Shown here: positions 21,487 through 49,802 of the stretch, piece by piece
How positions within the stretch are numbered: position 1 is the first letter of the stretch
How the letters are laid out: every line of letters starts with the position of its first letter
Source of the DNA: Myxococcota bacterium
GTDB taxonomy: Bacteria; Myxococcota_A; UBA796; CAJQPC01
DNA length: 64,000 bases
Direction of reading: 5' to 3'
Assembly: GCA_036229005.1 (NCBI GenBank)
Contig: JAZAMN010000011.1
Span: forward strand, 128,001-192,000
The notes under the pieces: generated by a model
What the model was told of the DNA's origin: nothing
Databases searched by the model: none
The model's input: only the letters and a program-made list of their open reading frames with translations
Made by a program: the position numbers and the translations under genes

Positions 21487-21608
21487 GGATGTCTCCAGCG
21501 GGTTTCAGCGCCAACGACCAGCATGGCGTTCTACACCCGGGAAGCGAGCAGCGGCCGAGGCCGAGGTTGGTCAGACCAGGCGCAAAAGGCGCCCTGCAGT
21601 GAACAGAA

Positions 21609-22374: not shown

Positions 22375-22464
22375 TCGTCCTCTCCTCGCCGGAACGCCGG
22401 TTCAACGGTGGACAGTTTCGTTGTTGAAATGCGACATGGGCCCTGACGGGCCCGAAGCCGCTGG

Positions 22465-22493
22465 CATCTATGAGAGATGCCAAAGAAAGTCAA
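22465..22493 (-). promoter_or_regulatory. Putative alpha-operon promoter
   Basis: Minus strand TTGACT-17nt-TAGATG between secY and rpsM. Confidence 0.5.
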
Positions 22494-22501
22494 GCTGGAG
22501 A

Positions 22502-26529: not shown

Positions 26530-26608
26530 GTTTTGTTCTCCAGTTCGGAGCTGGTTTCCTCAGGGAGGACCTGGCTCGAGGAAGAAAGTCTTAGCGAGCT
26601 CTTGAAGC

Positions 26609-28334: not shown

Positions 28335-28658
28335 CTAATCGTCGCCACCAACCTTGTCAACAATCCCCTGCAAAAACCCAGCACCAGCGCCGTCGGCCTG
28401 ACTGCCAGCGTCTGCAGCAGAGAAGCTGCCGCGGAACTTGTTGCGAAGGCTGTCCTTGGCCAAGCCCTGGTTCAGCTCCCGCTCGCGCTGGAAGGTCCGG
28501 GCCCGGGCGATGTCCTTGCGGAGCTTGCCGATGACCGAGGAGTCCTCGAGCTGGTTCGTCGCGAGCTGAAACTCGGCAGTGACCATCTGACGCTCCAACT
28601 GGAGCTCGTGATGGACAAGCTGCTCATCGGTCATGCTCTTCCAATCGGTGGTAGCCAT
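28335..28658 (-). CDS. rpmC: 50S ribosomal protein L29 with C-terminal extension
   Basis: Position between rplP and rpsQ; FQLATNQLED..I..LRKDIARART. Confidence 0.88.
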   Translation of the reverse strand: MATTDWKSMTDEQLVHHELQLERQMVTAEFQLATNQLEDSSVIGKLRKDIARARTFQRERELNQGLAKDSLRNKFRGSFSAADAGSQADGAGAGFLQGIVDKVGGDD

Positions 28659-31500: not shown

Positions 31501-32124
31501 TCAGGCCCCCAGGCGGCTGATGATACCGTCGACCGCAGCCTTGGTGGCGGCGATGTTGCCGTGCTTGAGCACGTCGTAGACGTTCAAGCCCTCGACGGGG
31601 AGCACGGTGACGCCGGGAAGATTCCGGGCCGACTTGATGACGTTCTCGTCCTTCTCGCTCAGGATGAGGAGCAGGTCGTTGAACTCGAAGTTGTCCATGA
31701 CGGACTTGAAGGACTTGGTCTTGATCTCGCTCATCGCGAAGCTATCGAAGACAGTGAACTTCGACTCCTCAACACGGCGGGACAGCGCGCTGCACAGCGC
31801 GGCGCGACGGACCTTCTTGGGAACCTTGTGCCCGTGATCACGAGGGGTGGGACCGAAGACGATTCCGCCGCCACGCATCTGCGGGGCACGGGTGGTGCCC
31901 TGACGCGCGCGGCCGGTGCCCTTCTGCTTGAAGGGCTTCTTGCCGCCACCAGACACCTCGGAGCGGCCCTTCACCTTGTGGGTACCCTGACGGCGGTTGG
32001 CGAGCTGTTGACGGACCACCGTGTAGAACAGGTGCTCCTTGACCTCGGCGCCAAACACGTTCTCGTCGAGCTCGATAGAGCCGACGGACTGCTTGGCCAT
32101 GTTGTAGACATCGACGGTAGGCAT
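31501..32124 (-). CDS. rplD: 50S ribosomal protein L4
   Basis: RQGTH..K.RSEVSGGGKKP.KQKGTGRARQG, SARNLP. Confidence 0.98.
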   Translation of the reverse strand: MPTVDVYNMAKQSVGSIELDENVFGAEVKEHLFYTVVRQQLANRRQGTHKVKGRSEVSGGGKKPFKQKGTGRARQGTTRAPQMRGGGIVFGPTPRDHGHKVPKKVRRAALCSALSRRVEESKFTVFDSFAMSEIKTKSFKSVMDNFEFNDLLLILSEKDENVIKSARNLPGVTVLPVEGLNVYDVLKHGNIAATKAAVDGIISRLGA

Positions 32125-32158
32125 GCGAATGCTCCTGCTTCTCTGCCAGGCAGAGCGC

Positions 32159-32473
32159 TTAGGAAAGCTTGATCTCGACGTGCACACCAGCGGACAGGTC
32201 GAGCTTCATGAGAGCATCGACGGTCTGCTGGGTGGGCTCAAGGATGTCGAGGAGGCGGTGGTGGGTCCGACGCTCGAACTGCTCACGGGACTTCTTGTCG
32301 ACGTGAGGTCCGCGCAGAACGGTCCAGCGAGAGACGGTGGTAGGCAGGGGGAAGGGACCCCGGATGCTCACACCCGTACGCTTGGCGGCCTCAACGATCT
32401 CGTTGGCGCTGCGGTCAAGCAGCTTGTGATCGTAGGCCTTGAGCCGGATGCGGATCTTGTTGGTCTGGGCCAT
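32159..32473 (-). CDS. rpsJ: 30S ribosomal protein S10
   Basis: [23 protein letters not shown]. Confidence 0.98.
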
Positions 32474-32690: not shown

Positions 32691-34766
32691 TCACGGAGCG
32701 CCGTCGGTTGTTGGGGTCAGCTCCTGCTTTCGCTGGAGTTCCTCACGCACGGTCGCCGACGCGGGCGCGTAGCGTCGAAGGCGTGTCCCGTAGGTTCCCC
32801 TACCCTGGGTCTGAGACCTCAGCCGGGTCGCATACCCGAACATCTCGGCCAGCGGAACTTCCGCCACCACCCGTTCTTCGCCGGGCGTTGCATCGACTTG
32901 CTCAATGAAGCCACGTCGGCCGCTGATGTCGCCCAGGACCTGGCCGAGGTACTCGTGGGGTGCACGAACCTCAAGCTCCACCCGTGGTTCCAGGAGGACG
33001 GGCGCCGCGTCCATCAGCGCTCTCCTGAACGCCGTCCTCGCTGCCTGCCGGAAAACCGCCTCACTGGCATCGACCTCCCGATACTCGACCTCCTCCAGGG
33101 TCACCTCAACGCCGCTTACCGGCATTCCGGCCAGTGGCCCGCAGGACAAGACCTCGTCCACGGCCCCCCAGATCGCTTGCCGGTAGGACGCGGGGAGCCG
33201 GTCAGGCTGGACCAGGTCCGTCCGCTTGCGGTCTGCATGGGGGGACACCCCGAACACCACTCGTCCGAACTGACCCCGCCCGTTCACGATTCGCTGCTGG
33301 AGCGACTCCCCTACTGCCCGCCGAGTTGGCGCCTCCTTGTAGGCAACTTGGGGGCGCCCGAACTCGGCGTTCACGCCAAAGTCCCTCAGAAGACGATCCT
33401 GGGCGACTTCGAGGTGGAGCTCCCCCATCCCGTGGAGCAGAAGGTCTCCCGTGTCCTCGTTCTTGCGGAGACGAAGACTCGGGTCCTCATGGACCAGTGC
33501 CGCGAGCGAGTCGCCCAGCCTCGGTGCGGACTCTGCATCCAATGCCCGGACCGCAAGATAGATCACTGGGTCCGGTACATGAATGGCCTCCAGAACGACG
33601 GAGAGCTGCTGAGAGCAGACAGTGTCGCCCGTATCGACCCCATCAAGGGCTTCCACCCCCACGATGGCACCCACACCGACCTCATCGACTCGTTCCGCCT
33701 CACTCGCATAGAGTTGGACGAGCCGAGACAGGCGCAACTTGGTACCGGTTCTGGGGTTCCATGCCAAATCGCCGGCCCGAATCCGGCCAGAGTAGACTCG
33801 GAGCCAGGTCATCCGGCCGAGCGCAGGATCGTTCATGCGCTTGAACGCGAGCGCGACTAGCGGGGCATCCCTGTCCGCACGTACCCGCAGCGGCTTTCCA
33901 TCGCTGCTCTCCACCTGCAGATCGGGATGGTCCAACGGCGACGGCAGGAGACGGGTCACGGCATCGAGGAGTGCAGTTGTTCCCTGGTTGTGGAAAGCAG
34001 ACCCGCAGAACACCGGGACCACTCGGCGCTCAAGTACGGCGCTTCTGGCTGCCAACCAGAGGTCCTCAGTTGGGAGAGCGCCCTCGTCGAGGAACCGCGC
34101 CATGAGCGCTTCATCCTCAATGAGTGCGTCGAGGAGCAGCTCCCTAGCGAACTCGAGTTCGTCCTTCAGGGTGCCAGCGATCTCCATCTGGACTGGCCCC
34201 AACGGATCGCTGGAGAAGCGCCAGGCTTCCTGAGCCAGCAAGTCCACATAGCCGACAAAGCGCTCCTCCTCGACGATCGGGATTTGAAATGGAACCGCCT
34301 CTGCACCAAGACGCGTCTGGATGTCCTCAACACACCGGTCGAAGTCGGCCCCCACGCGATCCATCTTGTTCACGAAGGCGAGCCTGGGGACACCATAGCG
34401 GTCCGCTTGGCGCCAGACCGTCTCAGACTGGGACTGGACCCCCTCAGTAGCCGAGAAGACCGCGACCGCACCATCAAGAACCCGAAGGCAGCGCTCCACC
34501 TCAACAGTGAAGTCCACATGCCCGGGGGTATCGACCAGATTGACCTGGTGCCCCTGCCACTCGAGCACGGTAGAGGCCGCCGTGATCGTGATCCCCCTCT
34601 CCTGTTCCTGGGCCATCCAGTCCATGACGGTTGTCCCGTCATCGACTTCGCCCATGTGGCGCAGAAATCCGGCGCAGAACAAGATCCGCTCTGAGAGCGT
34701 GGTCTTTCCTGCATCTATGTGGGCCAGGATTCCGATGTTCCGGACCTGGCTGGCTTGATTGGCCAC
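32691..34766 (-). CDS. fusA: Elongation factor G family GTPase, divergent (EF-G2-like)
   Basis: [39 protein letters not shown]; directly after rpsG; domain IV motifs degenerate. Confidence 0.85.

Positions 34767-48611: not shown

Positions 48612-49802
<1,191 letters not shown>

Follow-up and report, generated by a model that had tools for sequence, protein, structure and literature searches.

The window analysed here is a 64-kb stretch of the genome under study (G000:C11:128001-192000), and positions given without a contig name are those of the window. On its minus strand lie rpsJ (uS10, 104 aa; 32159..32473, with the ATG at 32473 and a TAA stop at 32161-32159) and rplD (uL4, 207 aa; 31501..32124, with the ATG at 32124), whose products both score above the NCBIfam cut-offs (157.7 bits against a cut-off of 85 for NF001861, and 255.6 bits against 130.1 for TIGR03953, respectively). 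The two genes are separated by a spacer of 34 nt (32125..32158, minus strand) at the usual position of rplC, and this spacer is without any L3 remnant. Relative to the canonical S10 operon (rpsJ-rplC-rplD-rplW-...), rplC here stands outside the operon with a leader of its own, whereas the other genes are in the usual order. A tblastn search of the 64-kb window with the genome's own L3 as query reveals no L3 sequence (best E-value 0.46). The initial annotation had placed the rpsJ stop 34 nt from the rplD start and had reported no L3 in the spacer or the window, and both observations are confirmed. It had also described a hairpin and an AGGAG in the spacer; the AGGAG is present at 32132..32136 (minus strand), where its sequence marks it as the ribosome-binding site of rplD, as is a 6-bp CTCTGC/GCAGAG hairpin at 32141..32155 (minus strand), but the loop is CTG rather than TGG. 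As a regulatory element this hairpin was considered and rejected, since its stability is at chance level (z-score 0.15, with 104 of 200 shuffled sequences folding equally well) and it is not conserved, the spacers of relatives being different.

The junction is bridged with neither a joint nor an indel by contigs from all four sequencing runs, which belong to four studies and comprise two DNA runs (X2 and X3) and two RNA runs (X4 and X6); the X2 contig is near-identical to the window DNA and may be its source. Because the junction is bridged cleanly in four studies the gap is real, and an assembly collapse, which the initial annotation had named as grounds for refutation, is excluded. Longer rpsJ-rplD spacers of 246-325 nt are found in loci L153, L201, L203 and L205 (families f55, f40, f45 and f48 respectively), and these too are without an L3 remnant. 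A structured-looking block, GAAGGGCGUC ... GGACGNACCCG, is common to these four spacers with variants, and three of them have a TTGAC promoter-like site 5' of rplD; the block is possibly another ribosomal protein leader.

The G000 genome (6.4 Mb, 94% complete) contains a single L3 gene, the sole match to PF00297. This rplC is full length (uL3, 213 aa; G000:C11:112572-113213, plus strand; 285 bits for TIGR03625) and is on the same contig as the window, outside it and about 15 kb to the left of its start; 47 kb separate it from rplD, which lies on the other strand. It is preceded by a gliding-motility cluster (L522:849-14419, corresponding to G000:C11:96849-110422) with two OMP_myx_plus barrels, GltC-, GltE-, CglF- and GltG-like genes and CglE, in which CglE scores over its cut-off and the GltC-, GltE- and GltG-like genes under theirs, and it is followed by two CoA-transferase genes. 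The gliding cluster also adjoins rplC in most of the order to which G000 belongs, and in family f11. These gliding genes, together with a locus labelled Kofleriaceae that branches within the same tree, assign the organism to Myxococcota. A promoter candidate (TTGCCG, 17 nt, TACATG; G000:C11:112462-112490, plus strand), from which transcription of rplC would start, was identified with a custom regular expression; a stricter promoter scan of the region upstream of G000 rplC returned none. Promoter-like sites are present 5' of rplC in 25 of 50 genomes of the order, compared with 0.8% of control windows that are mostly coding, and the RNA contigs at rplC cover the coding part only.

These observations bear on what became of the gene. 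The initial annotation had suggested that rplC was relocated or replaced, for example by an antibiotic-resistant or a separately regulated copy. Relocation is borne out by the single intact copy identified in the genome-wide profile search, and separate regulation is supported by the promoter-like site and by a conserved leader (see below). That the gene is instead a foreign, drug-resistant or spare copy, or that the gap is an assembly error, is a very improbable account. It draws on the L3 search, in which the best named matches included many Streptomyces at 55-58% identity; against it, the gene is the only copy, its GC3 of 0.92 is like that of native genes, the junction is bridged in four studies and shared across the phylum, and in the L3 tree, which agrees with the species tree at the level of classes, the protein clusters with others from its class (SH-aLRT 93), which counts against foreign replacement. 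The question of resistance was judged on distribution and on the tree; the letters at the L3 loop tip near the peptidyl transferase center (TRLT) are common to relatives, and across the phylum they vary freely, independently of the split. An ESM Atlas search returned nothing beyond L3. The rplC gene is thus neither lost nor replaced, but is present as one intact native stand-alone copy. Foreign replacement is refuted for this lineage; given a tree of 209 columns with few near outgroups, one at the base of the phylum may still have occurred.

The split is old, near phylum-wide and not special to G000. Within the order, 31 genomes were queried and rpsJ adjoins rplD at all 27 loci with a DNA match, so that the adjacency noted in the window extends to the related genomes; rplC is present in all 31 genomes and has neither rpsJ nor rplD beside it at any of the 30 rplC loci returned. 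Across the phylum, 65 of 70 rplD loci read directly, from 51 families and chosen for family coverage rather than at random, are without rplC in the slot. The other five are canonical and belong to families f16, f21, f25 and f29. Position lists show rplC and rplD adjacent in four of 98 genomes that list both genes; the counts of genes on different contigs (81 of 98) are not used as proof, for which we rely on the 70 directly read loci. The canonical order including rplC is found in loci from Desulfovibrio, Actinomycetota, Bacillota and Verrucomicrobiota. The four families with this order group together as one clade, which is nested within the phylum in unconstrained trees; in the L3 tree they fall outside it with Desulfovibrio. 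A topology that unites all split lineages is not rejected, however (p-AU 0.24). One early move of rplC is the simplest reading and we infer a single origin as likely.

Insertion of rplC at one common site throughout the phylum was also considered and is rejected, as its neighbours vary by family: the gliding cluster in the class of G000, dapF in 13 families, rplS in f13 and rplQ in genome G022. This variation obscures the route by which the gene moved. In G022 (L137) rplC is about 560 nt downstream of rplQ, at the end of the alpha operon, with the leader kept. In f13, rplS adjoins rplC at loci L231, L237, L241, L243 and L245; in G116 it ends about 59 nt upstream of rplC on the same strand, and in three others the two are divergent. 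For gene-order tools the practical consequence is that those expecting rplC next to rplD will miss it across most Myxococcota.

The relocation itself is visible in the annotation of a model organism. In the accessible supplement of PMC12754779, an RNA-seq table for Myxococcus xanthus DK1622, rpsJ (MXAN_3299) and rplD (MXAN_3300) are 53 nt apart and rplC (MXAN_3370) is 58 kb from rplD; as in G000, rplD follows rpsJ directly and rplC is distant, although M. xanthus rplC shares the strand of the S10 operon and that of G000 is on the opposite one. The arrangement can thus be read from a published table, but no paper that describes either this split in Myxococcota or a leader for uL3 was found in the open-licence literature, subscription papers being outside that scope. 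Neither is mentioned in the accessible text of PMC7247131, PMC10931766, PMC11109978, PMC2481283, PMC5416885, PMC9508819 or PMC10802402, and a search of the supplements of PMC4765838 gave no matches. What is new here is the identity of the leader, and probably uL3 as its ligand.

The leader of the stand-alone rplC contains a hairpin (G000:C11:112525-112560, plus strand) that ends on the first G of a GAGGA ribosome-binding site. Genomes of the order share the pattern CGUA-M-G...C-CAA-UGCG followed by a Shine-Dalgarno site; in the fold of this pattern a 1x3 internal loop separates a 4-bp stem from a variable hairpin. The pattern is present 5' of rplC in all 51 genomes of the order, some of which were used to derive it, compared with 394 of 3613 control windows, and in all 51 the stem ends 8-14 nt 5' of the start codon and touches the Shine-Dalgarno site. 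In an alignment of 29 distinct rows, pairing holds in 92.6% of cells, four of 10 pairs change on both sides, and the covariation score is not reached by any of 500 shuffles, as is also the case for the strand-swapped form described below; because the core pairs are invariant or changed on one side, the covariation stems from the flanking stems. Model R1 matches 81 of 92 genomes of the order and one of 28 other genomes of the class, with one match per genome except for two in G303. All 17 of the held-out matches that were located are directly 5' of rplC, one of them having the same letters as a training row. There is no terminator at the rplC leader and no Rfam match to it at gathering score. 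When the whole G000 5' region is folded, the motif pairs have a probability of about 26% and the minimum-energy structure is another hairpin over the Shine-Dalgarno site; since the motif fold is not that of lowest energy, a ligand would have to select it. Most of the split families have no match to the loop before rplC, and the loop therefore does not explain the relocation.

A form of the same loop with its two strands exchanged is found elsewhere. It is 5' of rplC in all four f11 genomes and in 13 of 17 f17 genomes; it was confirmed, as predicted, in genomes fetched afterwards (all three new f11 genomes and 11 of 15 new f17 genomes), and the four f17 misses look like variants. Eleven further loci from families f9, f18, f19, f33, f40, f42 and f57 do not have it. 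The identical CAA loop is present in five of seven Microbacteriaceae, 35-75 nt 5' of rpsJ and ahead of an intact S10 operon. A pattern scan of metagenomes yielded at least 119 matches; among those listed, 29 are about 20 nt 5' of an actinobacterial-type rpsJ (28 identified by blastx and one by eye), rplC follows rpsJ in all 13 loci with 600 nt available, not one lies before rplS or rplN, and 90 lack any ribosomal protein gene behind them and look like chance matches. The Microbacteriaceae S10-operon leaders comprise loci L038, L062, L066, L077 and L081, together with L400-L518 (29 loci), and eight loci of this type that were scanned have no Rfam match. In an alignment of 31 rows of the strand-swapped form, 96.4% of cells pair, five of nine pairs change on both sides, and covariation of the flanks is strong. 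Within the phylum no full match is found before rpsJ, the sole match among 96 leaders being from Microbacterium, and Streptomyces S10 leaders have scattered matches only. Model R2 gave three matches in 150 genomes of the phylum, all of them training sequences; it is too weak for whole-genome searching, so these few matches do not show absence.

Both forms resemble the base of helix 96 of 23S rRNA. As G000 is without an assembled rRNA we used that of its relatives G004 and G169, in which CAC-CUC-UGG pairs with CYA-C-GUG and folds as a 3x1 loop; the two strands are at approximately 2678-2686 and 2723-2729, positions estimated by offset from an anchor. The leader core corresponds to that of helix 96, with a C-G pair, a C-N-M loop, a U-A pair, a G-U or G-C pair and one base opposite the loop. 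Helix 96 is the only match to the leader core that is common to both rRNA sets, each with about 2,500 possible 3x1 loops; in addition a second match near 717 is present in one set, and an alternative partner strand in the other. The strands of the order leader are in the reverse of the rRNA order, and those of the f11, f17 and Microbacteriaceae loops are in the rRNA order. The leader positions that vary, namely the middle loop base and the single base opposite, include the rRNA letters. The pairs flanking the core are reversed, being U-A and C-G in the leader versus A-U and G-C in the rRNA, and are nearly fixed among leaders, and Model R2 fails to detect helix 96 in rRNA at E-values of up to 2. 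On these sequence comparisons, we predict that the leader hairpin mimics helix 96 at its 3x1 internal loop.

The loop also resembles a known leader, the L19 leader (RF00556). Both are small bulged hairpins beside a ribosome-binding site, with a C-N-M/single-base internal loop and the same closing pairs, and locus L301 aligns to the L19-leader consensus UUC-CGC-UGc / gGCA-A-GAg with 21 bits (E-value 0.016 on 141 nt); this is the best score obtained, below the gathering score of 36 bits, and none of five genomes is over the cut-off. The two differ in that the L19 leader precedes rplS in Firmicutes, Fusobacteria and Flavobacteria, whereas the present hairpin precedes rplC or rpsJ-rplC, and the strands of the order rplC leader are opposite in order to those of the L19 leader. 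The accessible text of Yao et al. 2007 (PMC1913097) states that homology of the L19 leader to an rRNA site was not identified, whereas here helix 96 matches its loop. More generally the hairpin is like the rRNA-mimicking leaders for L20, S15 and S4 discussed in the accessible parts of PMC7247131, being a covarying rRNA-like structure upstream of a ribosomal protein gene. The literature was compared as text, and figures, such as the L19 sites in Figure S1 of PMC7247131, may bear on the helix 96 comparison.

We regard feedback repression by uL3 through the helix-96-like leader as the likeliest reading, and hold it with modest confidence. In this reading rplC left the S10 operon, probably once and early in Myxococcota, and in the order of G000 the leader of the stand-alone gene would mimic the 3x1 loop of helix 96. 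Spare uL3 would bind its own mRNA at this loop and block the rplC ribosome-binding site, thereby repressing translation. The ligand is suggested by gene content: rplC is the only ribosomal protein gene common to the stand-alone transcripts and the Microbacteriaceae operon, and the other ribosomal protein genes tested beside rplC in the motif-bearing families were absent except for the upstream rplQ in G022, in a comparison where 27 of 72 loci have less than 110 nt of downstream sequence. With uL3 the only ribosomal protein encoded behind all of the placements found, uL3 feedback is the likeliest regulation. We presume that uL3 contacts the matched part of helix 96. Open-licence literature provides no direct statement of uL3 touching helix 96; in the accessible parts of the sources, its documented contacts are with domain VI and the base of helix 95 (PMC9935924; PMC2577335), and cryo-EM shows domain VI becoming stronger as uL3 occupancy rises, 'except H96' (PMC9687910).

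The same mimicry could instead be read by a neighbouring protein. bL19 touches helix 96 and requires uL3 during assembly, and the hairpin could be recognized by bL19 or by a uL3:bL19 pair, with rplC and the Microbacteriaceae S10 operon being cross-regulated from elsewhere. The identity of the loop with the Rfam L19-leader consensus, reversed flanking pairs included, speaks for this reading, as does the position of rplS directly beside rplC in five of six f13 genomes. We nonetheless consider this main rival unlikely, if not negligibly so. None of the six f13 genomes, where rplS adjoins, has the loop before rplC, and 27 of 29 rplS leaders in the phylum are without the loop, the other two being stray matches and neither in G000; moreover, in the accessible text of PMC7247131, feedback leaders usually bind the product of their own operon, and its Table S1 has the L19 leader's own ligand as unconfirmed. 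It is more doubtful still that the hairpin is some other conserved cis-regulatory RNA, responding to another protein or a small molecule or acting as a translation enhancer, and that its likeness to helix 96 is a coincidence. The matched core is about eight bases only, the likeness was spotted post hoc, the flanking pairs run in the reverse sense, R2 misses helix 96, and one of the two rRNA sets has the second chance match near 717. Coincidence accounts less readily for the occurrence of both strand orders, which is expected if loop shape alone matters, for the recurrence of the loop in another phylum before an rplC-containing operon, and for the presence of rRNA letters among those found at the variable leader positions.

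If feedback by uL3 is the correct reading, a uL3-sensing copy of helix 96 may occur in three settings, these being the stand-alone rplC with two strand orders and the S10 operon of Microbacteriaceae, and the L19 leader may be the same copy, with the loop either reused for two neighbouring proteins or reading the uL3:bL19 pair; we see the chances of this broader proposal as evenly balanced. In E. coli the S10 operon is regulated by uL4 according to the accessible text of PMC10931766, in which 'uL3' as a whole word appears once and not as a regulator, and uL3 is not listed as a ligand in the accessible Table 1 (20 new motifs) or Table S1 (earlier motifs) of PMC7247131. The uL3 protein organizes domain VI of 23S rRNA, yet these leader tables and the review passages available list no leader under its control. 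The proposal would give the S10 operon of one group of Actinomycetota a regulator and supply the L19 leader with its counterpart in rRNA, and the natural circular permutation of the loop would show which atoms the protein must read. As the hairpin is 35-50 nt long and occurs in cultured Microbacterium, the idea is directly testable.

Several other features of the window and genome are worth recording. Slots in the spc and alpha operons at 26530-26608, 22375-22501 and 21487-21608 indicate that further genes have been shed, and gaps of fitting size are present at the same slots in many relatives; elsewhere in the genome rpsN and rpmJ are side by side on contig C73 (84229-84526), rpsD is on C30, adk on C18, map on C31 and C21, and infA on C20. 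The fusA gene of the str locus (32691-34766) is divergent, with approximately 35-69% identity to the copies of relatives, and a canonical-type EF-G query matches slightly better on C8 than at this fusA. The tuf gene is not beside it, and is at 48615-49802. Four relatives (L025, L028, L160 and L178) have no fusA between rpsG and rpsJ. The rpmC gene (28335-28658) encodes a uL29 of about 107 aa with a C-terminal extension, the usual length of uL29 being about 65 aa.
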